Origin: an uncultured Porphyromonadaceae bacterium
Lineage (GTDB): Bacteria; Bacteroidota; Bacteroidia; Bacteroidales; Muribaculaceae
Assembly: GCA_947177035.1 (NCBI GenBank)
Contig: CAMWSS010000009.1
Coordinates: 1,566-65,565 of the forward strand
Reading direction: 5' to 3'
DNA: 64,000 nt
In this document: piece by piece, positions 32,236 through 50,950 of the stretch
Numbering within the stretch: the first letter of the stretch is position 1
Layout: the number at the start of each line of letters is the position of its first letter
The notes under the pieces: generated by a model
Told to the model about the DNA's origin: nothing
Database searches by the model: none
What the model saw: the letters and a program-made list of their open reading frames with translations, nothing else
Program-made: the position numbers and the translations under genes

Positions 32236-32243
32236 TAATTTTG
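32236..32243 (+). promoter_or_regulatory. -7 promoter box (TAATTTTG), distal copy
   Basis: TAATTTTGCG, repeated 27 bp downstream. Confidence 0.4.
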
Positions 32244-32262
32244 CGCTGACGGAATTTTTTGC

Positions 32263-32270
32263 TAATTTTG
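32263..32270 (+). promoter_or_regulatory. -7 promoter box (TAATTTTG), proximal copy for topA
   Basis: Exact match 30 nt upstream of ATG 32301. Confidence 0.5.
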
Positions 32271-32300
32271 CGATTTGAAACACAAGAAGCTTACCGACCC

Positions 32301-34661
32301 ATGCCCATAAAAAACCTGGTGATAGTGGAGTCTCCCGCCAAAGCGAAGACCATTGAAAAATTTCTTGGAAAAGACTATAAGGTCCTTTCCAGCTATGGCC
32401 ATATCCGAGATCTGGCCAAAAAAAGTTTTTCGCTGGAGGAAAACGCCGAAGGACGCCGCGATTTCACACCCAACTATGAAATTCCTGAAGAGAAACTCGA
32501 ACGCGTCAAAGAGCTGAAACAGGCGGCCGCAAGCGCCGAGACCGTGTGGCTCGCATCTGATGAAGACCGTGAAGGAGAAGCCATTGCATGGCATCTGAGC
32601 GAAGTGCTCGGACTCGACCCGGCCAAGACGCGACGCATAGTTTTTCACGAAATCACGAAAGACGCCATTCTCCACGCCATAGCCAACCCGCGCACCATAG
32701 ACCTTGACCGCGTCAATGCCCAGCAGGCACGCAGAGTGCTTGACCGCATAGTGGGCTTTGAACTGAGTCCCGTGCTCTGGAAAAAGATCAAGCCGGCCCT
32801 GTCGGCAGGCCGCGTGCAGTCAGTGGCAGTGCGTCTGATCGTTGAACGCGAACAGGAAATCAAGGACTTCAAGTCGGAAGAATACTTTCGTGTGACCGGC
32901 CGGTTCACAACGGCCGACGGCGCCACAGTGCGCGGCGAACTGAACCGCAGACTGCCCGACGAGGCTTCGGCCCGCGAGTTTATGAACGACTGCGCCGGAG
33001 CCAGCTTCAAAGTCAACTCCGTTAACGTGCGTCCGGCAAGAAAAAGCCCCGCGCCGCCTTTCACCACCTCGACCCTCCAGCAAGAGGCGGCCCGCAAGCT
33101 CGGATTCACCGTCAGCCAGACCATGAGCGTGGCCCAGCGCCTGTATGAGGCCGGACACATTACGTATATGCGTACCGACTCCGTCAACCTCTCGAACCTG
33201 GCCATAAACACCATATCGAAGGTGATCACCGACAAACTCGGCAAGGACTACCTTCACGTGCGCCACTACCACACCAGCTCGAAGGGAGCGCAGGAAGCCC
33301 ACGAAGCCATCCGCCCGACCTATGCCGACGTGGAGAGCATCGACGGCACACAGGCAGAGAAACGACTCTACACCCTGATACGCCGCCGTGCCATCGCATC
33401 GCAGATGGCCGACGCGGAAATCGAACGCACCACAGCCGAAATCGGCGTGAGCAGCCGCCAGGAACATTTCACCGCCCAGGGCGAAGTCATCAAGTTCGAC
33501 GGTTTCCTCAACGTTTATCTCGAAGGCCGCGACGACGACAGTTCCGACGAGTCGACACAAGACGGCAACCTGCCCCAGCTGTCGGCCGACCAGAGCCTCG
33601 ACTGCGCCGACATCACCGCAATGCAGCGCCACACTGTCCATCCCCCGCGCTTCACCGAAGCCGCACTGGTCAAGAAGATGGAAGATCTCGGCATCGGACG
33701 CCCGTCGACCTATGCCCCCACCATCTCCACAATCCAGCAGCGCGAATATGTGGAAAAGGGCAACCGCGAAGGCACCGAGCACCCGTTCACCGTGCTGAAT
33801 CTCTCGCCCGACGGCACCATCAGCACCGAAACCCGCACCGAAGTGCTGGGCGGCGACCGCGGAAAACTGCTGCCCACCGACATCGGCATCGTGGTCAACA
33901 CCTTCCTTGACGAATACTTCCCCGACATTCTTGACTATAATTTCACGGCACGCGTCGAAGAGAAATTTGACGAGATCGCCGAAGGAAAACTGCCTTGGCA
34001 GCAGGAAATCGGCGAATTCTACGCGCAATTCCACCCCGAAGTGGAAAAGGCCCTGAACATGCGCCTCGAACATCGCGTCGGCGAACGCATTCTCGGCGTT
34101 CACCCCGAATCAGGCAAGCAGGTGAGCGTCAAGATCGGACGATTCGGCCCGCTGGTGCAGATCGGCGACGCCGACGCCGAAGAGAAGCCGCAGTTCGCCT
34201 CGCTGCTCAAAGGCCAGAGTCTCGCCACGCTGACCCTCGACGACGCCCTGAAACTGTTTGAATTTCCACGCACAATCGGCGAATATGAAGGCAAAGACGT
34301 GACAGTGGCCATCGGACGCTTCGGACCTTATGTGAAACACGACGGACGCTTCGTGTCGATTCCGGCAAGCGTGGCTCCGGCAGCAATCTCGCTCGACGAA
34401 GCTATCGAGCTGATCGAGGCCAAACGCCAGGCCGAGAAAAACAAAATTATCAAGCTCTTTGACTCAGATCCTGAGCTTCAGATACTTAACGGACGCTTCG
34501 GACCATACATCTCGTATAAAAAAGAAAACTATAAAATTCCCCGCACGGTCACAACCCCCGCCGACCTGACCGAAGAGGAATGTCGCGAGATAATAGCCTC
34601 ACAGGCCGACAAACCGAAAAAGACCTCACGCAAAACAGCCTCCTCACGCAAGAAGCAATAA
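32301..34661 (+). CDS. topA: DNA topoisomerase I
   Basis: TOPRIM domain (LVIVESPAKAKTIEKFLG), active-site region YMRTDS, and C-terminal repeats. The start is ATG 32301. Confidence 0.97.
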   Translation: MPIKNLVIVESPAKAKTIEKFLGKDYKVLSSYGHIRDLAKKSFSLEENAEGRRDFTPNYEIPEEKLERVKELKQAAASAETVWLASDEDREGEAIAWHLSEVLGLDPAKTRRIVFHEITKDAILHAIANPRTIDLDRVNAQQARRVLDRIVGFELSPVLWKKIKPALSAGRVQSVAVRLIVEREQEIKDFKSEEYFRVTGRFTTADGATVRGELNRRLPDEASAREFMNDCAGASFKVNSVNVRPARKSPAPPFTTSTLQQEAARKLGFTVSQTMSVAQRLYEAGHITYMRTDSVNLSNLAINTISKVITDKLGKDYLHVRHYHTSSKGAQEAHEAIRPTYADVESIDGTQAEKRLYTLIRRRAIASQMADAEIERTTAEIGVSSRQEHFTAQGEVIKFDGFLNVYLEGRDDDSSDESTQDGNLPQLSADQSLDCADITAMQRHTVHPPRFTEAALVKKMEDLGIGRPSTYAPTISTIQQREYVEKGNREGTEHPFTVLNLSPDGTISTETRTEVLGGDRGKLLPTDIGIVVNTFLDEYFPDILDYNFTARVEEKFDEIAEGKLPWQQEIGEFYAQFHPEVEKALNMRLEHRVGERILGVHPESGKQVSVKIGRFGPLVQIGDADAEEKPQFASLLKGQSLATLTLDDALKLFEFPRTIGEYEGKDVTVAIGRFGPYVKHDGRFVSIPASVAPAAISLDEAIELIEAKRQAEKNKIIKLFDSDPELQILNGRFGPYISYKKENYKIPRTVTTPADLTEEECREIIASQADKPKKTSRKTASSRKKQ

Positions 34662-35617
34662 TGTCAATCAACGAAAAGCAGACAAAACTGCGGCGCGCCC
34701 CGTTCAAACCCGACGTGGTGCGCACATTCACAGTCACCGAAGGAGAGCCGACATCGCTGTTGGCCTTTGTGGAGACAAAATTTCCGGAACTGAAGCGCAC
34801 GCGCCTGAAGCAGATGTTCGCCCACCGTCAGGTCAAACTGAACCAGTCGGTCATGACCCAGTGCAACATGGACGTTACCCCGGGCGACACGGTCAACGTG
34901 AACCTGACGCGCGAATTCCGCGAATTCACCCACCGGCGACTGAAACTGATCTACGAAGACGAGCATATTCTGGTGGTGCATAAGGGCTATGGCCTGCTGT
35001 CAATGGCCGGCGACGGCCCTGAAAAGCAGGAAACCGCCTACTCCATTCTGCGTGAATATCTGAAAAAAGAGCATCCCGGCAACAAACTTTTCATCGTGCA
35101 CCGTCTGGACCGCGACACCACCGGCCTGATGCTGTTTGCCAAGTCACAGGAAGCCAAAGAGACCTTGCAGTTCAACTGGAACGCCATGGTGCTTGACCGG
35201 CGCTATGTCTGCGTCACCGAAGGGCGTCCGGAACCGGCCGAAGGAATCGTGCGCACACGCCTGATGGAAAATTCCCGCCATGAGGTCTACTCCATTCCCG
35301 AAGACTCCGATCGCGGACAGCTCGCCGTCACCCGCTACACCACCCTCGGCACCGGCCGCGCCGGCCTGTCGCTCGTGGAATGCCAGCTCGACACCGGACG
35401 CAAAAACCAGATACGCGTGCACATGAAAGAACTCGGCACCCCCATCAGCGGCGACCGCCGTTACGGCGGCCACGCCTCGCCGATACACCGCATGGCCCTC
35501 CACGCCCGCACTCTGCGGTTTATCCATCCGATTACGAGAAAAGAGATGAGCTTCACCACACCGGTGCCGTCATCGTTCACCCGCCTGACCGGACGGATTG
35601 ACAATCGGGAGGCATGA
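34661..35617 (+). CDS. RluA-family 23S rRNA/tRNA pseudouridine synthase
   Basis: HRLDRDTTGLMLFAK catalytic motif and GRKNQIRVH. The ATG overlaps the topA stop (TAATG). Confidence 0.85.
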   Translation: MSINEKQTKLRRAPFKPDVVRTFTVTEGEPTSLLAFVETKFPELKRTRLKQMFAHRQVKLNQSVMTQCNMDVTPGDTVNVNLTREFREFTHRRLKLIYEDEHILVVHKGYGLLSMAGDGPEKQETAYSILREYLKKEHPGNKLFIVHRLDRDTTGLMLFAKSQEAKETLQFNWNAMVLDRRYVCVTEGRPEPAEGIVRTRLMENSRHEVYSIPEDSDRGQLAVTRYTTLGTGRAGLSLVECQLDTGRKNQIRVHMKELGTPISGDRRYGGHASPIHRMALHARTLRFIHPITRKEMSFTTPVPSSFTRLTGRIDNREA

Positions 35618-37320
35618 ACTTTCCGCGCCGGCTTCTGATCACGGCCATCATCGCTCTTCAAGCTCTGACGTCCATGGCCATAGGCCGTGGATTCGGCTCG
35701 GATCTGTCGTCGGCGGAAGGTGTGCTCCAGCAACATCTCGATTCACTGTCGCTGGCCACCACAGCGTCAGACAGCATTGACATTATCTATGGCATGTTCG
35801 ACATGCTCCCGCCCGACAGACGTCCGGCAATGGGCCACGAACTGTATCGGCTGATCAAAGCCGAAGAAGGCTATGAAGGCGCCCTCGGAGTTTTGCGTCT
35901 GCTGACCCTTATATACAAGGACAACTCCGAAGCGCTGAATGCCATCATACACGAAATGAGAGGAATGCCTGAGTCCGACGAGCTTCAGGAGTCCATTCTT
36001 TTCGCCAGAATCTATCTGGCGGCCAATCAGGCGCGCGGCGAAAGCCCCGAGAGCCTGCGCGAAAAGATCACCGCCCTGATCACCGTCGACCAGAACCACA
36101 TCTCAGACCATTACGAGCGGCTGCTCCATATGTTCACAGTGTGTATGTATGTGCGCGAAATGACCCACGGCCCACTGCTGGCCGAGAACCTGCGCTATCT
36201 CAACCGCGAACTGCGCCACAGGCCACTCTCCACCTATGCCATACGCCGGCAATATGCCGACATGAAGGCCCAGATCTTCACCGAAAACGACGAAGCGGCC
36301 GATGCCGTCGAAGCAGACCGCGAGCTGCTGGCAGTGATCAACGGCATGGATTCGGAATATCGCGCCAGAGAACGAAGGCACTTGGCACTGCACTGGTTCC
36401 GCTATCGGGCATACACCCGTATGCTTCGCAACTTCGACGCCATATCCGACGAAGAGGCCCGGCGCTATTATGCTGAACTGAACGCGCTGGCCGATTCTCT
36501 TCCTGAAGTGCGCGCCGTCTACAACAGCTTCCGCTACCCCGATATTTTCTATCTGCTGAAAACCGGCAACCATGCCGCAGCTCTGCCTTTGCTGAAAAAG
36601 GCGCTCACCACCGAATCCGACATCTCACGCCGGCGCTTTCTGCTCAGACAGCTCATCGACGCGGCCCGCCAAACCGGCGACGACGCTCTGGCCCTGGCCT
36701 CGGTGACGGAATACAATCCGCTGCTTGAAAACTACATTCAACAGAAAATCAAGGAAAGCGAACAGGAGATCACAGTGAGCCACAACCTTGCGTCCGTGCG
36801 CAAGCAAGCCCTTGAAAATGAGCTGGAAATGCGCCGCGAGAAAGGCCATCGCCGCAACATCGCCCTTATCTGTTCGGCAATAGCCCTGGCATTGGCCCTG
36901 GCGGCCCTGATCCAGCTCAACATCATGATCAACCGCTGCCGCCACACCGAAAGCCAGCTGCGCAACACCAACAGCCATCTGACCCAGCGGCGCAACATCC
37001 TGAAAAACAGCACCGACGAAATGCTTCAGGCAGTCAATGAAGCCGAAAAGGCTCAACGCGACAAAACCACATTCATCCGATATATCTCCTCGACAATCTC
37101 CCTGTCGCTCTCCTCGATAATGGAATACGCCCATAAAATCATCAACGCCTCCGACCAGGATGAAACCTGCCGGCGCATTCTCCATCGGTTTGCCGAAGTC
37201 ATAGAAGACAATTCCGAACATCTGCGCCGATCCGCACGACATCTGAAAGCCCTGTCGCATGGAGAAGAATTCAGGCAGAACGGCGGCAAGGAGACTTTCA
37301 AACCGGATTCCGACAAATGA
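35614..37320 (+). CDS. Histidine-kinase paralogue lacking both the phospho-acceptor His and the ATPase domain (signal peptide, helical sensor domain, TM, coiled coil, degenerate DHp)
   Basis: Collinear with the 41247..43337 kinase. Its H-box position reads FIRYISSTISLSL, and the protein ends about 60 aa later. The ATG overlaps the rluA stop (ATGA). Confidence 0.75.
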   Translation: MNFPRRLLITAIIALQALTSMAIGRGFGSDLSSAEGVLQQHLDSLSLATTASDSIDIIYGMFDMLPPDRRPAMGHELYRLIKAEEGYEGALGVLRLLTLIYKDNSEALNAIIHEMRGMPESDELQESILFARIYLAANQARGESPESLREKITALITVDQNHISDHYERLLHMFTVCMYVREMTHGPLLAENLRYLNRELRHRPLSTYAIRRQYADMKAQIFTENDEAADAVEADRELLAVINGMDSEYRARERRHLALHWFRYRAYTRMLRNFDAISDEEARRYYAELNALADSLPEVRAVYNSFRYPDIFYLLKTGNHAAALPLLKKALTTESDISRRRFLLRQLIDAARQTGDDALALASVTEYNPLLENYIQQKIKESEQEITVSHNLASVRKQALENELEMRREKGHRRNIALICSAIALALALAALIQLNIMINRCRHTESQLRNTNSHLTQRRNILKNSTDEMLQAVNEAEKAQRDKTTFIRYISSTISLSLSSIMEYAHKIINASDQDETCRRILHRFAEVIEDNSEHLRRSARHLKALSHGEEFRQNGGKETFKPDSDK

Positions 37321-38990
37321 CGATGATGAAAGCAGGACGCCGACATATGATCCCGCGGATGGTTCTGGCGCTGCTTCTGGCGCTGGCCACTCCGGCCATG
37401 CGTGGCTCGGTCCACAAGATGGCACAGCCCGACACCCGCCTCAGGATGATCGAATCGCTGCCAGGCGCCCGGACAGCGACCGACAGCATCACCCTGCTCT
37501 ACAATATCTATGACCTTTCGTCAGGCGCGGCGGCCGACTCCGCCGCCAAACAGATCTATCGCGTGGCCCGCGCCAACCGTTACGACGAAGTGGCTCTCGA
37601 CATTCTCAGAGACATGGCTCAGGTCCACTCCGACAATGACTCCATACTCGCCCGCATACAGACGATAGCCGAAAACGAGTTTCCGGAAAGCAACCTGCAG
37701 AAGGAGACCATAATCTTCGTGAAAATATACCGCACATATCTCGAAACGGCCTACACTCCTGAAAAAGAGCTGAAAGAGAAGATCAGACAGATCATCAGCC
37801 GATATGGCGGATCATATTCCACCGACCCTTACGAACGCCTGATGCAGCAGTTTCTCCAGTGCATCTTCATCAGCCACGAAACACAGGGCACACTGCTGAA
37901 CCAATACATCAACGCCCTGGAGCGACAGCTGCGCAACATCCCGCGGCAATCCGACAAACTCACCGCGCGCCTATACCGCCAGAAAGCCTACTCATATACC
38001 GTCAATTCCGACTATAATCGCGCAGTGGAAGCCGACCGCAAACTGCTTGAGCTATACGACAAAATCGAGCGAGTCAACGCGGCCCAGGGGCGTCCTTACA
38101 GAAACCTTGACCGTTTCCGTCTCGGCTCGCTCACGCGCATGCTCTCCAACTATCCAGCGCTGAACGTCGGCGAGGCCGACAGCATCTATCTCGCCATCAA
38201 CCACATCAAGGCCAAGAATCCGTCATTGCAGTCCGACGGGAAAACGGACCAGGCAAAAATATTCGTCGACATGGCCCACGGCAACTATGCCGCCGCACTC
38301 GAACCGCTGCGGGCTTTGGCCGCCACCGAACTCGACCACATAGAGCGCCGGCATCTTCTCAAACAACTGATGATCGCCGCTGAAAACTGCGGCCGCGAAG
38401 ACGTGCTGCTGGAAGCGTCGGCCTCCTATGCCCGACAGATCGAAGCATATATCGACTCGAAAATGAGCGAATGCCTGCGTGAACTCCAGATAATCTTCGA
38501 CGTTGACCGCCTGCGCACCGACTCAGTGACCAGCGAGCTTCAGATCCAGAACGAAGTTGGCCACCGGCGCACCCTGATGCTGAAGATAATGGTGGCGCTC
38601 GCAATGACATCGGCCGCGCTCCTTGTGACCTTCATCATCCTCTACAGACGCTTCCGCCGCCTGTCGGAGCATCTGAAAACGGCCAACAAACGCCTCATTA
38701 CACAACATGAGGAACTTCACTCCCGCTCCGAAGAACTGCGCGCGGCCATAGCCGAGGCCACATATGCCGAACAGCAGAAAGCGTCGTTCATCCGCTACAT
38801 CTCGTCGACCCTGCTGTTGCCGCTGCACTCGCTTATGGAATATTCCCAGAAACTGATCGACTCATCGCGCGGAGACGCCAAGCCCTTCCTGCAACGCTTC
38901 GGCGAGGTGGTGCGCGAAAACTCCGAACAGCTACAAAACTTTGCCGCCCGCCTGCTCAGACTCTCACGTCAGGATCACGACACAGACTGA
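37317..38990 (+). CDS. Second histidine-kinase paralogue lacking the His and the ATPase domain
   Basis: Same architecture as 35614..37320. Its H-box position reads FIRYISSTLLLPL. The ATG overlaps the preceding stop (ATGA). Confidence 0.75.
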   Translation: MTMMKAGRRHMIPRMVLALLLALATPAMRGSVHKMAQPDTRLRMIESLPGARTATDSITLLYNIYDLSSGAAADSAAKQIYRVARANRYDEVALDILRDMAQVHSDNDSILARIQTIAENEFPESNLQKETIIFVKIYRTYLETAYTPEKELKEKIRQIISRYGGSYSTDPYERLMQQFLQCIFISHETQGTLLNQYINALERQLRNIPRQSDKLTARLYRQKAYSYTVNSDYNRAVEADRKLLELYDKIERVNAAQGRPYRNLDRFRLGSLTRMLSNYPALNVGEADSIYLAINHIKAKNPSLQSDGKTDQAKIFVDMAHGNYAAALEPLRALAATELDHIERRHLLKQLMIAAENCGREDVLLEASASYARQIEAYIDSKMSECLRELQIIFDVDRLRTDSVTSELQIQNEVGHRRTLMLKIMVALAMTSAALLVTFIILYRRFRRLSEHLKTANKRLITQHEELHSRSEELRAAIAEATYAEQQKASFIRYISSTLLLPLHSLMEYSQKLIDSSRGDAKPFLQRFGEVVRENSEQLQNFAARLLRLSRQDHDTD

Positions 38991-39049: not shown

Positions 39050-39057
39050 TATCTTTG
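39050..39057 (+). promoter_or_regulatory. -7 promoter box (TATCTTTG) for greA
   Basis: Exact match 89 nt upstream of ATG 39147. Confidence 0.5.
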
Positions 39058-40025: not shown

Positions 40026-41243
40026 ATGGCCGACATATACCAACTGCGCCGCCGCGGCACCGTGATCTTTCTGATCATCACGGTGGCCGTGGTGGCTGTG
40101 TTTTTGTGGATCAGCAACTCGCTTGTGAGAGATCTGGCCGCCCAGGAGCGCCAGCGGATGGAGATCTGGGCCGATGCCACCCGCGAGATCGTGAGCGCCG
40201 ATCCGTTCGGACCGACAGCAGGCACCGACATCAACTTTCTGCTCAAGATCATCGAGGCCAACCGCACGATTCCGGTGCTGGTGACCAACGATGCCGACAG
40301 CATTCTGCAACAGCGCAATTTCGATCTGCCGGAACCGACACAGTCGTTGCCGCCATGGGTGATCACTCCGGCCAACAAGGAGTTTCTGCACCGCAAGCTG
40401 GTCGAAATGAAGAAGGCGACCGACAACGTAATCCACTTCGACATCGCTCCCGGCGAAGTCCAGCATCTTTACTATGAGGACTCCCGCCTTCTGCAACGCC
40501 TGAGCCTGTATCCCTACGTGCAGCTCGCGGTGATGATAGCCTTTGTGGCGGTGGTCTACTATGCCGTCACCTCAAGCAAGCGCGCGGAGCAGAACAAGGT
40601 GTGGGCCGGACTCAGCAAGGAAACCGCCCATCAGCTCGGCACCCCGATTTCGTCGCTGATGGCCTGGACGGAGATTCTGCCGAATTATGGCGTGGACGCC
40701 GAGACCATGACAGAGATCAACAAGGACGTGCACAGACTCCACACCATAGCGTCGCGCTTCGGAAAAATAGGATCGGAACCGGCCATGGAGCACGCCGACC
40801 TGAACCGGGTGGTTGATTGTGCCGCCGACTATATGAGAGCGCGCATTTCGCGTGCAGTCAGTTTTGAGGTCGCTCTCTGTCAGGAGGCTCTGCCTGTGCG
40901 CCTGAGCGCACCACTGATCGAATGGGTGATGGAGAATCTGATCAAGAATGCCGTCGATGCCATGGAAGGCCACGGGCGGCTGAAAATCACCACTCTCCGT
41001 GAGGGCGACCAAGCGGTCATCGAGGTGACCGACAGCGGCCGCGGCATAGCGCGCCGTGATTTCAACTCTATTTTCAATCCGGGTTTCACGACCAAGAGCC
41101 GCGGATGGGGCCTCGGGCTGACTCTTGCCCGAAGAATCGTGAAGCAATATCACAGCGGACGCATATTCGTCAAGCATTCCGAGCCGGGGGCGGGCACCAC
41201 ATTCCGCGTCGAGCTGCGCCTGCAACCGTCGTCACCGCAGTGA
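40026..41243 (+). CDS. Two-TM sensor histidine kinase
   Basis: H-box ETAHQLGTPISSLMAW, N-box ENLIKNAVDA, G-boxes DSGRGI and GWGLGLTLA. Confidence 0.8.
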   Translation: MADIYQLRRRGTVIFLIITVAVVAVFLWISNSLVRDLAAQERQRMEIWADATREIVSADPFGPTAGTDINFLLKIIEANRTIPVLVTNDADSILQQRNFDLPEPTQSLPPWVITPANKEFLHRKLVEMKKATDNVIHFDIAPGEVQHLYYEDSRLLQRLSLYPYVQLAVMIAFVAVVYYAVTSSKRAEQNKVWAGLSKETAHQLGTPISSLMAWTEILPNYGVDAETMTEINKDVHRLHTIASRFGKIGSEPAMEHADLNRVVDCAADYMRARISRAVSFEVALCQEALPVRLSAPLIEWVMENLIKNAVDAMEGHGRLKITTLREGDQAVIEVTDSGRGIARRDFNSIFNPGFTTKSRGWGLGLTLARRIVKQYHSGRIFVKHSEPGAGTTFRVELRLQPSSPQ

Positions 41244-41246
41244 GAG

Positions 41247-43337
41247 TCAGCGGGGTATGGTGAAGATGAATCTCGCGCCGCCGGTGTAGGCGGTGTCGAG
41301 TTCCACGCTTCCGTGGAGCAGCGTGGCTATCAGCCGACACACCGGAAGACCGAGTCCATGACCTGACGAACTGTCGTCGGTGGTGAAACGGTTGAAAATT
41401 GTCTCCTCCTTGCCTTCGGGAACACCGCAACCGGTGTCGGTGACGGTGAACTTCACCTGATCGGGCATGATTTCATAGTCGAGCGTTATGGTGCCTGATT
41501 CCGTGAATTTGGCCGCATTGTTCAGCAGATTCAGCAGAACAACCTGAAGACGGTATGGATCGGTTTCGATCAGCACCGGCTCGGCATCTTTTTTCGGGAA
41601 CCGCAGGCTGACACCGGGCTTCAGATTGATTTTCACATTATCGAGCGAGAGCAGGCAGATTGACTTGATGTCGGTCGGCCGGATCTTCACCGTCATGCGC
41701 GTTGACTCCAGAAGCGAAAAATCCTGAAGATCCAGCACAAACGACTGGAGCATCAGGGTGTTGAGCTGCACCACACGCGAAAAATGGCTGAGATAATCAC
41801 GGCGGCTTTCGTCGGTGGAGTCGATGATCATCTGCGAATATTCGGTGATGGTGTTCAGCGGCGTTATGATTTCGTGACTTATATAGTTGATGAAATCCGT
41901 TTTGTTTTTTTCCGCCTCGCTGGCCTTGTCGCGCGCCGCGATAAGCCTGTCGCGCGTCGACCTGAGCACCTCGCTCTCGTGTTCGAGTTCGCGGTTTGAC
42001 TGCTTCAGGCTGGCCGACAGTCGCTTGAACCTGCGAAACAGCCCGACAAAGACCATCGCCACAATGATCAGGACGATCAAAGCGATCACGCTGATGTTGA
42101 TAACGATGTTTTTCAGCCGGTTGGATTCACGCTGACGTTCAAGTTCATTGACCGTGTTGCGGTCTTTCAGCCTGTTGACCTCATATATTATCTGCAATTC
42201 GCGATAGCGTTCGGCCGACTTGAGTTTGACAAAGTCTTCAAGCGATCTGGCATACTCCATTGATGTGGCAAGGCGTGCTTCAGAGTCGCCAAGCGCTTCG
42301 GCCGCCGTCATCATCAGTTGCAGATAATATCGGCGGCTGAATATGTCGGAACTCTTTTCAAGATTCGATTTTATGATCGGCATTGCCTTGGCATAGTCGC
42401 CGCGCTTCATGTAGATGCACATCTGCGGCTGGCGGTAATACTCCATGTCGGCACGCGCCGATTCATGCTTCGAAGCCACATCCTGAATCTGGCGGTAATA
42501 TTCTTCGGCCTCGCTGTCGGTCAGCGCCTGATAGTTTTTGAGAATTCTCCGGAGGCTGACATATCTGTTGAGGTCAAAGTTGCAGTACAGGCGTCCCTGC
42601 CGGCGATATTCCTCTTCCAGTTCATCCATTATGTCAAGCATCTTTCGGTCGGCTTCGATGGCTTTTCTGCTCTCGCCGTTGTTGGTATATGTGATTGCCT
42701 GCTGCAGATAGAGCCTGTTGCGTATCAGAAAGGTCGTGAGCGGCAGCATCGCCACATAGTGCTGAAGATCTGAGAAATACTCCATCAGCAGCTGTCCGTG
42801 TGTCTCGTTGCTGAGAAAGCTGCATATGGCAAAGAGCTGCGTCATCTGCTCATAAGGATCGTCGGCATCGCTCTTGCTGTATTCCTTGATCAGGTCGAGA
42901 ATTTTCTGCTGGCGCATATCCTCGGTCATCATCTTCGACATCTGTGCAGCCCGACAGACCCTGATGAACGCCAAGGTCTCCTTTTTGAGATTAGACTCCG
43001 GAAACGCCTTCATCCGGTCAAGCAGCCTGACCATCAGCGAGTCGTCGGCCTGATTGGCATTAGCCATCTGCCGGATCATGTCCATCACGACAGTGTCATT
43101 GCCGGTACGTTCGGCCAGAGCCATCAGCTGCGAGGCTGACTCGCTGCGTTCGCTGACGGAAGCTGAAAGGTCAAATATGTTGTAGAGAGCAATTATGCTG
43201 TCGGCAGAAGTCGTGACATTCGGCAAAGCAGTCATCAGGCTGTCGCGGATCTGCGTGCGCCTGAATCCGGACGCATCAGCCCCTATGGCGCATAAAGCGC
43301 ACATTAACAACACTATCAATGCTTTATACCTATACAT
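41247..43337 (-). CDS. Full-length sensor histidine kinase, parent-type paralogue of 35614..38990
   Basis: Signal peptide, helical periplasmic domain and TM. H-box FINYISHEIITPLNTITEY, N-box NLLNNAAKF, then DTGCGVP and GHGLGLPV. Confidence 0.85.
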   Translation of the reverse strand: MYRYKALIVLLMCALCAIGADASGFRRTQIRDSLMTALPNVTTSADSIIALYNIFDLSASVSERSESASQLMALAERTGNDTVVMDMIRQMANANQADDSLMVRLLDRMKAFPESNLKKETLAFIRVCRAAQMSKMMTEDMRQQKILDLIKEYSKSDADDPYEQMTQLFAICSFLSNETHGQLLMEYFSDLQHYVAMLPLTTFLIRNRLYLQQAITYTNNGESRKAIEADRKMLDIMDELEEEYRRQGRLYCNFDLNRYVSLRRILKNYQALTDSEAEEYYRQIQDVASKHESARADMEYYRQPQMCIYMKRGDYAKAMPIIKSNLEKSSDIFSRRYYLQLMMTAAEALGDSEARLATSMEYARSLEDFVKLKSAERYRELQIIYEVNRLKDRNTVNELERQRESNRLKNIVINISVIALIVLIIVAMVFVGLFRRFKRLSASLKQSNRELEHESEVLRSTRDRLIAARDKASEAEKNKTDFINYISHEIITPLNTITEYSQMIIDSTDESRRDYLSHFSRVVQLNTLMLQSFVLDLQDFSLLESTRMTVKIRPTDIKSICLLSLDNVKINLKPGVSLRFPKKDAEPVLIETDPYRLQVVLLNLLNNAAKFTESGTITLDYEIMPDQVKFTVTDTGCGVPEGKEETIFNRFTTDDSSSGHGLGLPVCRLIATLLHGSVELDTAYTGGARFIFTIPR

Positions 43338-48742: not shown

Positions 48743-48750
48743 TAATTTTG
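48743..48750 (+). promoter_or_regulatory. -7 promoter box (TAATTTTG) for the two-component operon
   Basis: Exact match 36 nt upstream of ATG 48787. Confidence 0.5.
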
Positions 48751-48786
48751 AGGCTCAAAATTAATCAATTACTACTATCTTTTCCG

Positions 48787-49497
48787 ATGAGAATAAAAAT
48801 TTTAGTTATTGACGACGAAGAATCGATCTGCGAAATACTCAAATATAACCTTGAAAAGGAAGGCTATGAGGTAGACACCGCCCTGTCGGCCGAGGAAGCG
48901 CTTGAAACCGATCTGCCGTCTTATTCGCTCTTTATCGTCGACATAATGATGGACCAGCTCAGCGGATTTGATTTTGCAAAACGCCTGAAAAACAACGACG
49001 ACGTGGAAAACACGCCTATCATCTTCTGCTCGGCGCTCTCAGGCGAAGACGACACGGTGATGGGCCTCAACATAGGTGCGGACGACTACATCACAAAACC
49101 GTTCAAGATTCCAGAAGTGCTGGCGCGCGTGCGCTCGGTGCTCCGCCGCAGCCACGTCACGCGCGACATTGCCCAGATACGCCGCGAAGGCCGCTATGAA
49201 TCCGACATCGTGTTCCACGGCCTGCGACTGAACCGCAACCGCAAAGAGTGCGTGATCGACGGACAGCCGCTGTCGCTCAGCCGCACCGAATTCGACCTGC
49301 TGCTGTTTTTCCTCACCCACCGCAACCGCATATACTCGCGCGAAGAGATCATCAACGAGGTATGGGACAAGAACGTGGTGGTCACAAACCGCACGGTCGA
49401 CACCAATCTGACACGCCTGCGCAAGAAGCTCGGCTCCTACGGCAAGCACATAGAAACCCGTGTGGGATTCGGCTATGGCTTCAACGAGACGGCTTAG
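48787..49497 (+). CDS. OmpR/PhoB-family response regulator
   Basis: The receiver domain (KILVIDDEESI...DIMMD) precedes a winged-helix domain (LSRTEFDLLLFF...VDTNLTRLRKKL). Confidence 0.9.
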   Translation: MRIKILVIDDEESICEILKYNLEKEGYEVDTALSAEEALETDLPSYSLFIVDIMMDQLSGFDFAKRLKNNDDVENTPIIFCSALSGEDDTVMGLNIGADDYITKPFKIPEVLARVRSVLRRSHVTRDIAQIRREGRYESDIVFHGLRLNRNRKECVIDGQPLSLSRTEFDLLLFFLTHRNRIYSREEIINEVWDKNVVVTNRTVDTNLTRLRKKLGSYGKHIETRVGFGYGFNETA

Positions 49498-50950
49498 ATA
49501 TCAGTGGAGACTGTTCATTCCGCTGGTGACAATGCTGTGGCTGATAATCGGCTGCATGGCATTCTATACCTATCGTAAAGAAAAACAATTCAAACTCGAA
49601 CGGATCGAATGGCAGCTCTCCAACATCAACCGCTCGATCATCGGAGCATACGACGGCGGAGAGAGCGACATCTCGGACTTCGTTCTGTTCATCGACAGGT
49701 TTTTCACCAACTCACTGTATGACGACATACACATCGCCGTCTACAACAGCTACGGACGTCTCATAGCCCAGAACGGGCCACAGAACGTCGACCTCTTCCC
49801 CCACACCTCCCACCTCACCCACGACGAAATAGAAAGCGCCAAACTCAGGCCATCGCCCATCGACCCGAACGAAATGCTCTTCTATTCGGCAATGCGCAGC
49901 TCCGACAACCAGATCTGCGTACACACCTCGATGCCCTACACCGTGGCGATTGCAAAAATTGTCGACTACAATCCGCTGATATGGCTGTTTGTGACAGTTC
50001 TCGGAATCATAGCCACCGTGATCTCATATCTGTCGACACTGCATCTGAGCCGCAGCGTCTATCTGCTGCGCGACTTCGCTCACCGCGCGGCCTCTGGCGA
50101 ACCGCTCCCCGACAAGATCATCGACGGCAACTTCCCCCACGACGAACTCGGAGAGGTGTCGCAACAGATCGTCAACATATACCGGGCCAAAGACAAAGCC
50201 CTCGCACGGAGCGAACACGAACACCTCGTGGCTCAACGCGCAATCGAAGAGAAAGCCCGCATAAAACGCCAGATGACCAACAACATAAACCATGAGCTGA
50301 AAACTCCCGTCGGCATCATCAAAGGCTATCTCGACACCATAATCTCCGACCCCGACATTCCGCCGTCGCTGCGCGACAGCTTCCTGAAAAAAGCCCAGGC
50401 CCACACCGACCGCCTCTCAGACCTGCTCAAAGACGTCAGCACCCTGACCAGACTTGACGAAGGATCAAACCAGGTGGAAATAAGCGATTTCGACTTCCAC
50501 GACCTGGTGTTCAGCCTGGCCTCCGACCTCGAAGTCTCAAAAATGGCCGGCGCAATGGAATTTACCTACAACATCCCGGCCGACTGCTGGGTGCAGGCAA
50601 ACTACAGCCTGGTGATGAACGCCATGTTGAATCTGGTGCGCAACGCCGCGGCATACTCCAAAGGCTCGCGCATCTCGCTCAACCTGATCGACCGCTCGGA
50701 AGTGGACTACACATTCTCATTTGCCGACAACGGCAACGGAGTGGCGGAAGAACACCTGCCCCACCTGTTTGAACGGTTCTATCGCGTCGACGAAGGCAGA
50801 GCGCGCAAAAGCGGCGGCACAGGACTCGGCCTGCCGATCGTGCAGATAACCTTCAACACCCTCGGTGGAAGCATCAGCGTGCGCAACGCCAGACCCCACG
50901 GACTCGAATTCATATTCACATTACCGAAAGGTAAAAATCCTAACTCATAA
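49475..50950 (+). CDS. Sensor histidine kinase (cognate to the preceding regulator)
   Basis: Two TM helices, H-box NINHELKTPVGIIKGY, N-box LVRNAAAYS, DNGNGV and GTGLGLPIV. ATG 49460 is an alternative start. Confidence 0.88.
   Translation: MASTRRLRYQWRLFIPLVTMLWLIIGCMAFYTYRKEKQFKLERIEWQLSNINRSIIGAYDGGESDISDFVLFIDRFFTNSLYDDIHIAVYNSYGRLIAQNGPQNVDLFPHTSHLTHDEIESAKLRPSPIDPNEMLFYSAMRSSDNQICVHTSMPYTVAIAKIVDYNPLIWLFVTVLGIIATVISYLSTLHLSRSVYLLRDFAHRAASGEPLPDKIIDGNFPHDELGEVSQQIVNIYRAKDKALARSEHEHLVAQRAIEEKARIKRQMTNNINHELKTPVGIIKGYLDTIISDPDIPPSLRDSFLKKAQAHTDRLSDLLKDVSTLTRLDEGSNQVEISDFDFHDLVFSLASDLEVSKMAGAMEFTYNIPADCWVQANYSLVMNAMLNLVRNAAAYSKGSRISLNLIDRSEVDYTFSFADNGNGVAEEHLPHLFERFYRVDEGRARKSGGTGLGLPIVQITFNTLGGSISVRNARPHGLEFIFTLPKGKNPNS

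Follow-up and report, generated by a model that had tools for sequence, protein, structure and literature searches.

Two tandem genes, here called A and B, were analysed in a 64,000-nucleotide stretch of DNA from a mouse-gut Muribaculaceae bacterium (assembly GCA_947177035.1, contig CAMWSS010000009.1; G+C content about 56%), hereafter the window, and their products are very probably maintained, non-catalytic sensors that derive from a kinase. Both are predicted to be membrane-anchored periplasmic sensors that originate from a HisKA-type histidine kinase resembling K, an intact paralogue encoded in the same window. They fail the defining features of histidine kinases, as they have neither the phospho-acceptor histidine nor the catalytic and ATP-binding (CA) domain, and yet they keep a homologous dimerisation and histidine phosphotransfer (DHp) hairpin. 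The reading that we favour, to which we give a probability of about 0.5, is that A and B act as non-catalytic sensor subunits in which a ligand-binding solenoid would control the DHp hairpin, this hairpin being the output that engages an intact kinase or its regulator.

The coordinates and lengths that an earlier note on this DNA had given for the three genes agree with the list of open reading frames (Table 1). The proteins had also been described as collinear, and BLASTP alignments covering essentially the full shared length were indeed highly significant, with 28% identity between A and K (E 2e-68), 35% between B and K (E 6e-99) and 33% between A and B (E 1e-72). A lack of significant similarity to K, which that note had named as a ground for dismissing its claim, is thereby excluded. 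A signal-peptide-like N-terminus and one transmembrane (TM) segment are visible in each of the three sequences, and the succession proposed earlier, namely a signal peptide, a helical periplasmic domain, one TM helix, a coiled coil and the DHp region, is found in the sequences as well as in a structure model of B. An alternative start of B, located 10 codons downstream and used in a near-identical homologue at NCBI, would shorten the protein to 547 aa. In K, Pfam recognized both HisKA (1.3e-6) and HATPase_c (6e-24) and the H, N, G1 and G2 boxes could all be located, in keeping with its description as a full-length kinase; many NCBIfam kinase models match its residues ~440-695. The absence of a catalytic domain from A and B was equally borne out, since Pfam gave no HATPase_c match in either protein and both end at DHp helix 2. 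HisKA itself was detected only below threshold in B (E 0.012) and gave no match in A. Nevertheless, a profile built from the B clade matched the DHp hairpin of HK853 over its entire length (PDB 2c2a/3dge, chain residues 14-84, E about 1e-3), which indicates that the hairpin is kept complete in the short proteins.

The H-box reads FINYIS-H-E-IITPL in K, FIRYIS-S-T-ISLSL in A and FIRYIS-S-T-LLLPL in B, and the replacement of His by Ser and of Glu by Thr claimed for both copies therefore stands. Past this 13-residue box, 69 residues remain in A and 54 in B, close to the 60 or so that had been noted. In HisKA kinases, the threonine found four residues after the histidine (H+4) is part of the ExxT/N phosphatase motif; in A, B and their orthologues this position is occupied by Leu or Ser. 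By their sequences, both proteins are unable to bind ATP or to be phosphorylated on the canonical histidine, and they are devoid of the ExxT phosphatase motif. The Ser-Thr pair that takes the place of His-Glu is invariant in all 13 A- and B-type genes, where it is written with three Ser codons and four Thr codons. All orthologues read (S/A)-S-T, and as the preceding residue is Ala in two B orthologues, only the Ser-Thr pair is fixed. On the contrary, the corresponding position drifts in clades of full-length relatives that have lost the histidine, in which N, S, G, D, Y and R were all observed.

No conserved histidine was found in DHp helix 1 of the A clade or of the B clade, and a phospho-acceptor in a shifted register, which the earlier note had named as a way in which its claim could fail, was ruled out. 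The only invariant cytoplasmic histidine of the B clade is His464 of B (positions 38706-38708 of the window), present in nine of nine B-clade proteins. It lies in the coiled coil, 33 residues upstream of the H-box position, and it is not kept in the A clade, where four of the five proteins examined have Arg and one (P0019) has His; K has Ser. A separate peculiarity of the window concerns the end of the box of A, which reads SLSL, the sequence in all A orthologues and in the remainder of the family being SLPL. This change of the DHp proline at H+5 to Ser (CCG to TCG) is confined to the window lineage.

Loss of the acceptor histidine and of the catalytic domain would inactivate a canonical kinase, and A and B might on this ground be decaying pseudogenes, that is remnants of kinases inactivated by truncation and still open by chance. 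The ratio of nonsynonymous to synonymous substitution rates (dN/dS) is also somewhat higher in A and B than in K. It was calculated pairwise by the method of Nei and Gojobori, with dS near saturation in the most distant pairs. In the comparison with a 90%-identical relative (L001), A gave a dN/dS of 0.131, B of 0.111 and K of 0.088, flanking genes having values of 0.01-0.10; with a 70%-identical relative (L006), the values were 0.16-0.20 (A), 0.14-0.20 (B) and 0.08-0.10 (K). The values of A and B are thus far below 1. In addition, both frames are open at every locus examined, with lengths of 532-576 aa down to 42-50% identity: orthologues of A have 559-576 aa and those of B 532-559 aa, the latter down to 49% identity (orthologues of K are 67-81% identical). 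A and B are therefore intact and under purifying selection and, to judge by these loci, their length and motif are preserved throughout a clade of genus level within the Muribaculaceae.

The form of the truncation speaks against decay as well. In either protein, DHp helix 2 is followed by no more than a short tail, 20 residues long in A and 7 in B. The stop codon of A overlaps the start of B (ATGA) and only 156 bp separate the stop of B from greA, which leaves no room for an ATPase remnant. In parallel, tblastn with the CA domain of K, run on the window and six related loci, found no CA remnant near A or B; the matches were confined to K, to its neighbour HK2 and to further, unrelated kinases. 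The varying codons at the invariant residues and the conserved operon coupling described below are likewise hard to reconcile with chance survival. A contrast case is provided by a split kinase gene of the same family, P0056 (L013, 2095-4227), in which a 569-aa HisKA reading frame with an intact histidine is followed 4 bp on by a separate 139-aa HATPase_c reading frame. P0056 may have been split, frameshifted or wrongly assembled; in any of these cases, A and B look different. Taken together, dN/dS, constant length, lack of CA remnants and the contrast with P0056 led to rejection of the pseudogene reading, which we regard as extremely improbable. The earlier note had expected a pseudogene to show an HATPase remnant and a dN/dS near 1, neither of which was seen, and its view of A and B as maintained pseudo-kinases is supported by the low dN/dS (0.11-0.20), the constant length and the invariant Ser-Thr pair with its varying codons.

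The structure of B was modelled with AlphaFold2 from a 27-sequence alignment (mean predicted local distance difference test score, pLDDT, 80). The model starts with a hydrophobic N-terminal helix, followed by a periplasmic solenoid of 17 helices (residues ~40-358, pLDDT about 90). A continuous helix (361-516) then comprises the TM segment (~420-443), the coiled coil and DHp helix 1, and a turn after residue 516 leads to helix 2 (522-552) and the C-terminus. In a Foldseek search against the PDB, the model resembled LGN, LbcA (7rqf), AimR, RapI and Pex5, with E values of about 1e-3 and TM-scores below 0.45, and weak Pfam matches to tetratricopeptide repeats (TPR) were obtained in K and its relatives. 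The sensor domain is accordingly modelled as a periplasmic TPR-like solenoid. This type of fold typically binds peptides or proteins; a specific ligand could not be deduced from the Foldseek search, which gave generic TPR matches only.

DHp helix 1 is the best-conserved segment in every clade, with a within-clade identity of 0.70 in B, 0.68 in A and 0.97 in K, compared with 0.56-0.57 for the periplasmic domain of A and B. The dN/dS of the DHp region of B is 0.064. Along with the invariant Ser-Thr pair, these values argue that the cytoplasmic hairpin is functional and more than an anchor. The 97% identity of helix 1 in K is consistent with several interaction partners. The pattern of conservation is equally compatible with self-association of A or B, with A-B pairing and with another partner.

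The relatives of the pair were collected by an exhaustive phmmer search with B, which returned 440 representatives, of which the best 150 were examined. Most of the 440 are kinases of about 700 aa with the same sensor domain. Trees were built by neighbour-joining on Kimura-corrected identities, either from the sensor and DHp columns or from the periplasmic domain only. The short forms are monophyletic, with a bootstrap value of 100 for the sensor and DHp columns and 65 for the periplasmic domain only, and the A and B subclades each reach 100 with both sets of columns. Since the short forms make up one clade that is divided into A and B only afterwards, it is well supported that the loss happened once, ahead of the duplication, as the earlier note had supposed. 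One ancestral event, or a closely spaced series, probably removed the whole CA domain exactly at the DHp/CA boundary and turned the phospho-acceptor His-Glu into Ser-Thr, the gene being then duplicated to give A and B. The nearest relatives of the short-form clade in the neighbour-joining tree are K and P0013, with which it groups at a bootstrap value of 94 for the sensor and DHp columns.

A and B were found at two reference-genome loci and in about ten clusters at 90% identity, and they are restricted to a narrow clade of Muribaculaceae; the closest protein matches of the window also carry this family name. The scan of reference genomes gave these two loci only, and the context at further loci was obtained by looking up exact proteins. 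Neither Pfam nor NCBIfam has a family that covers A or B, sources label the proteins as "hypothetical protein", and nothing specific to this family was found in the literature on Muribaculaceae or Bacteroidetes, in line with the earlier statement that no such family had been described. DUF6377 (PF19904), which groups Bacteroidetes proteins with TPR, a TM segment and a C-terminal region, was considered and set aside, as A, B and K gave no match to it at E values up to 1 and nothing useful was found in the literature; in three distant relatives, its profile scored below threshold (18-22 bits for a cut-off of 36.7) on the TM and coiled-coil region.

Loss of catalytic residues recurs in the wider family, which was examined in an alignment of representatives P0012-P0159 with A, B and K of the window, including 125 full-length proteins among the best 150 of the 440. 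The H-box histidine is absent from 34 of these 125 (27%), nearly all of which keep the N, G1 and G2 boxes. It was lost in at least 16 separate lineages, among them old clades (of 11 and 7 representatives) with a drifting residue at this position. Two clusters of full-length proteins without the histidine contain 55 and 83 members, isolate sequences included, and the members of these clusters are therefore real genes; P0029 is an abundant relative without the histidine. The reverse type, in which the histidine is present and the ATP-binding boxes are degenerate, is found in about eight representatives. P0013 (L003, 3868-5985; also in L004 and L005), a 705-aa protein, is the nearest relative that K has apart from the K orthologues. 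Its H-box (SHE) agrees with that of K, and its N (LLTSAAKRT) and G1 (FTATQMEIP) boxes are degenerate; the gene lies between two SNF-family transporter genes, with no regulator in its vicinity. Finally, P0135 (L014, 1303-2697) is a complete internal gene for a sensor-only protein of 464 aa that ends just after the TM helix. A 346-aa gene without Pfam match lies 219 bp downstream of it, and several other matches of about 416-502 aa may be sensor-only in the same way.

The family thus comprises proteins with sensor and DHp and a fixed Ser-Thr pair (A and B), proteins with the histidine and degenerate boxes, proteins with the boxes and no histidine, and proteins with sensor and TM helix only. This complementary degeneration is the pattern that would be expected if paralogues of the family signalled as hetero-oligomers, and it hints at signalling from one paralogue to another. 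A further-reaching proposal is that kinase functions may be distributed among hetero-oligomerising paralogues, A and B being input subunits of a combinatorial "split kinase" network in which Ser-Thr would be a contact or acceptor site; we consider this rather unlikely.

The features located in the window are collected in Table 1. A and B belong to a chain of genes, topA-rluD-A-B, whose stop and start codons overlap or lie close together (TAATG at 34659-34663 for topA/rluD, ATGA at 35614-35617 for rluD/A and ATGA at 37317-37320 for A/B). The same order was observed in L001, L006, L002, L007 and L008, that is in six contigs with the window. A Bacteroidetes-type -7 motif precedes topA, and the next TAnnTTTG on the plus strand is found at 39050-39057, ahead of greA, so that topA-rluD-A-B is likely to be one transcription unit. 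Over the whole window, 33 copies of TAnnTTTG were counted, where chance alone would give 14, and most of them lie a short way ahead of a gene start. A scan of the window for sigma-70 promoters and intrinsic terminators gave nothing above chance, the patterns used being unsuited to Bacteroidetes. The association of a membrane sensor pair with topoisomerase I in one operon is unusual.

Table 1. Features of the window; positions are counted from its first nucleotide.
Feature	Position	Strand	Description
Two Bacteroidetes-type -7 motifs (TAnnTTTG)	32236..32270	+	ahead of topA
topA (DNA topoisomerase I)	32259..34661	+	first gene of the chain topA-rluD-A-B; Pfam labels at syntenic L006
RluA/RluD-type pseudouridine synthase gene	34661..35617	+	Pfam labels at L006; stop overlaps start of A
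Gene A	35614..37320	+	568 aa; truncated sensor paralogue without the His; open reading frame list
Parts of gene A			signal peptide or anchor, TPR-like periplasmic domain, one TM, coiled coil, DHp hairpin, short tail
TM segment of A	36856..36930	+	residues 415-439; hydrophobic stretch in the sequence
Degenerate H-box of A	37072..37110	+	FIRYISSTISLSL; Ser493-Thr494 for His-Glu; residues 487-499
DHp helix 2 of A	37171..37257	+	from the alignment; protein ends 20 residues on
Gene B	37317..38990	+	557 aa; truncated sensor paralogue without the His; architecture as in A
TM segment of B	38574..38645	+	residues 420-443, inside the continuous predicted helix 361-516
Degenerate H-box of B	38787..38825	+	FIRYISSTLLLPL; Ser497-Thr498 for His-Glu; H+4 Thr also lost
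DHp helix 2 of B	38880..38966	+	model helix 522-552; protein ends 7 residues on, at the DHp/CA boundary
HK2	40026..41243	+	405-aa AtoS/NtrB-like orphan kinase; context, not a proven partner
Gene K	41247..43337	-	696 aa; intact paralogue with HisKA and HATPase_c; orphan kinase
N, G1 and G2 ATP-binding boxes of K	41337..41537	-	LLNLLNNAAKFT, VTDTGCGVP, GHGLGLPVC
H-box of K	41856..41894	-	FINYISHEIITPL; His488; same in five K orthologue genes

K belongs to a distinct conserved block, greA-HIT-HK2-K(convergent)-yip1-smpB-ftsK, and this block lies directly beside the A-B block in L001, in L006 and in the window. The genes of HK2 and K converge, only 3 bp separating one stop codon from the other, and the pair formed by greA-HIT-HK2 and K is conserved in six loci. 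A and B occur together with an orthologue of K in the window, in L001, in L006 and in GCA_964555345.1 (L002 and L011). In L009 (1464-4754, GCA_029068955.1), a single B-type short gene follows rluD in place of the A-B pair, with an orthologue of K also present; A would thus be dispensable or have been lost in at least one lineage. Between this B-type gene and greA, L009 carries an AAA_15/AAA_21 ATPase gene and a gene for a 197-aa protein. Most loci come from metagenome contigs, from which the absence of a gene from a genome cannot be deduced.

As the earlier note had stated, no response regulator adjoins the three genes: tblastn of the window with four receiver queries detected no receiver gene adjoining A, B or K, and no regulator gene adjoins HK2 or K. 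The nearest receiver belongs to a 249-aa OmpR-type regulator (48748..49497, plus strand), which was set aside as a partner because its gene overlaps that of its own kinase. The latter (49460..50950, plus strand), a 496-aa HisKA kinase, forms with it an ordinary cognate two-component pair located 5.4 kb from K and downstream of trxB.

In the mechanism that we propose, the periplasmic TPR-like solenoid would bind a ligand, probably a peptide or a protein, and the continuous TM/coiled-coil helix would pass the resulting change to the DHp hairpin. The hairpin would then serve as a protein-protein interaction output. It would assemble into four-helix bundles (A-A, B-B or A-B), and its target would be an intact kinase, for instance K, in hetero-oligomers of the RetS/GacS type, or else the response regulator of that kinase. 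This engagement would tune phosphorylation output. That the output passes through the DHp hairpin seems fairly probable; that the target is K or the K pathway is a tentative and somewhat doubtful assignment, indirectly favoured by the co-occurrence of A-B and K in four to five genomes. The data neither prove nor exclude a link to K, and several observations weigh against it. The linkage of the A-B block to K is not conserved, the two being on separate contigs in GCA_964555345.1 (L002, L011), and L007 and L008 carry A-B with other downstream genes. In the trees, the group formed by the short forms, K and P0013 falls to a bootstrap value of only 23 when the periplasmic domain is used alone, the sister relationship to K resting mainly on the cytoplasmic part. 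In DHp helix 2, A and B are 0.42 identical to each other as compared with 0.25-0.27 to K, a likeness that self- or cross-association of A and B would fit better than pairing with K. Moreover, paralogous kinases usually evolve to avoid heterodimerising.

Some of these observations give room to an output independent of two-component signalling, in which the hairpin would open upon ligand binding and bind a partner that is neither kinase nor regulator, such as an enzyme or a transcription factor; K would then play no part. The place of the A-B block behind topA-rluD is constant, and other genomes show no linkage of this block to K; DHp helix 2 has diverged from K in a way common to A and B, and the strictness of the Ser-Thr pair despite the lost catalysis suggests a new contact surface. 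There is also a precedent for a DHp homologue without histidine or CA domain acting as a binding output (PMC6899989). However, no candidate partner gene is conserved beside A-B, as the genes downstream vary by locus and the conserved upstream genes, topA and rluD, encode housekeeping enzymes; we hold this explanation to be unlikely, if worth keeping in view. Another possibility is that the solenoid docks envelope proteins in the manner of LbcA, the TM helix and the hairpin being only an anchor and dimeriser. A periplasmic scaffold or adaptor of this kind would agree with the confidently modelled 17-helix TPR-like solenoid, with the best PDB matches, which are protein- or peptide-binding TPR proteins including LbcA (7rqf), AimR and Rap, and with the existence of complete family genes ending just after the TM helix, such as P0135. 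Yet the fold matches are weak and generic (by the E values and TM-scores given above), and a DHp helix 1 more conserved than the periplasmic domain, together with an invariant Ser-Thr pair, is hard to explain for an anchor, which makes a scaffold improbable.

The invariant Ser or Thr might finally be an alternative phospho-acceptor, and the short proteins substrates or relays, phosphorylated by the CA domain of an intact or His-less paralogue in trans or by a Ser/Thr kinase. The pair is invariant across two clades that are about 30% identical, at a position that drifts in the full-length relatives without histidine, and many relatives have intact ATP-binding boxes and no acceptor histidine of their own. 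Nevertheless, fixation is limited to Ser-Thr, the preceding Ser being replaced by Ala in two B orthologues, and the idea is purely inferential. CA domains of the HisKA type are not known to phosphorylate Ser or Thr in the DHp domain, and such a role appears very improbable. Non-catalytic sensor subunits with a hairpin output on an intact kinase or its regulator thus remain the reading that we prefer.

Pseudo-histidine kinases are already known, and A and B are in principle similar to them. The closest mechanistic model for an action of A and B on K is the RetS-GacS multikinase network of Pseudomonas aeruginosa. RetS belongs to the kinase family without working as a kinase, and it inhibits the intact kinase GacS by way of a contact between DHp domains that imitates the normal homodimer (PMC8498467). 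Unlike A and B, RetS keeps a full but ATP-blind catalytic domain, receiver domains and the histidine, and it has another sensor domain and no sequence relationship to them. In the same way, DivL of Caulobacter derives from a histidine kinase in which the acceptor histidine is replaced (by Tyr) and regulates CckA without phosphotransfer, its ATPase domain and acceptor residue not being needed (PMC4211667; PMC9491836). DivL differs from A and B in that its CA domain is kept and repurposed to sense DivK~P, as well as in its domain make-up and phylum. A and B are thus set apart from both DivL and RetS by having no CA-like domain.

Truncated kinases can be effective as well. In Corynebacterium glutamicum, a CA-less ChrS (ChrS_CA-fs) has an effect that needs the DHp domain and the paralogous HrrS and does not need the acceptor histidine, an interaction between the truncated ChrS and HrrS being not detected in the bacterial two-hybrid assay (PMC9491836). 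As in A and B, a sensor kinase truncated in or after the DHp domain is still biologically effective in this case; however, ChrS_CA-fs is a laboratory frameshift and not a conserved natural gene, and its histidine is still present. The HOS domain of RpBphP1 is a DHp homologue without histidine or CA domain that serves as a protein-binding output, with the repressor PpsR2 as partner (PMC6899989). It shares with A and B a C-terminal two-helix DHp homologue without kinase function, which in HOS forms a four-helix bundle in the dimer. RpBphP1 is on the other hand a soluble photoreceptor with a PAS9 domain upstream, no TPR sensor and no tandem pair, unrelated in sequence and phylum, whereas A and B have no PAS or phytochrome domains and carry a signal peptide, a TPR-like domain, a TM helix and a coiled coil instead.

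SkiA/pXO2-61 and pXO1-118 of Bacillus anthracis are truncated sensor-kinase paralogues that interfere with the pathway of that kinase (PMC5862856, and White et al. 2006 as cited in it). They also keep the sensor part of a kinase paralogue and differ from A and B by consisting of the sensor domain only, with no DHp, by being plasmid-borne and by having another sensor fold. A last case is FimS of Porphyromonas gingivalis, a Bacteroidales sensor kinase whose periplasmic region of TPR motifs suggests a protein signal (PMC5706477). In architecture, FimS resembles K and the ancestor of A and B. It is nevertheless a complete kinase encoded with its regulator FimR, while A, B and K have no adjoining receiver gene. 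What is new here is a derivative of a TPR-sensor kinase that is made of sensor and DHp only, is present as a tandem duplicate and is maintained in nature.

Histidine kinases are usually pictured as self-contained homodimers, and the few exceptions, such as RetS and DivL, were found genetically in model organisms. A and B add to this picture a natural pair, maintained by selection, that keeps only the input module and the dimerisation hairpin and that comes from Muribaculaceae, an abundant and little-studied gut family. The practical value of the finding is modest until a phenotype or a partner is found. The recurrent loss of the histidine or of the ATP site would make this family a good system for testing signalling between kinase paralogues. 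If A and B do act on an intact paralogue or on the regulator of this paralogue, the pair would show in compact and natural form how a DHp hairpin alone can serve as output, and it would indicate that duplication together with domain loss can build multi-input networks.

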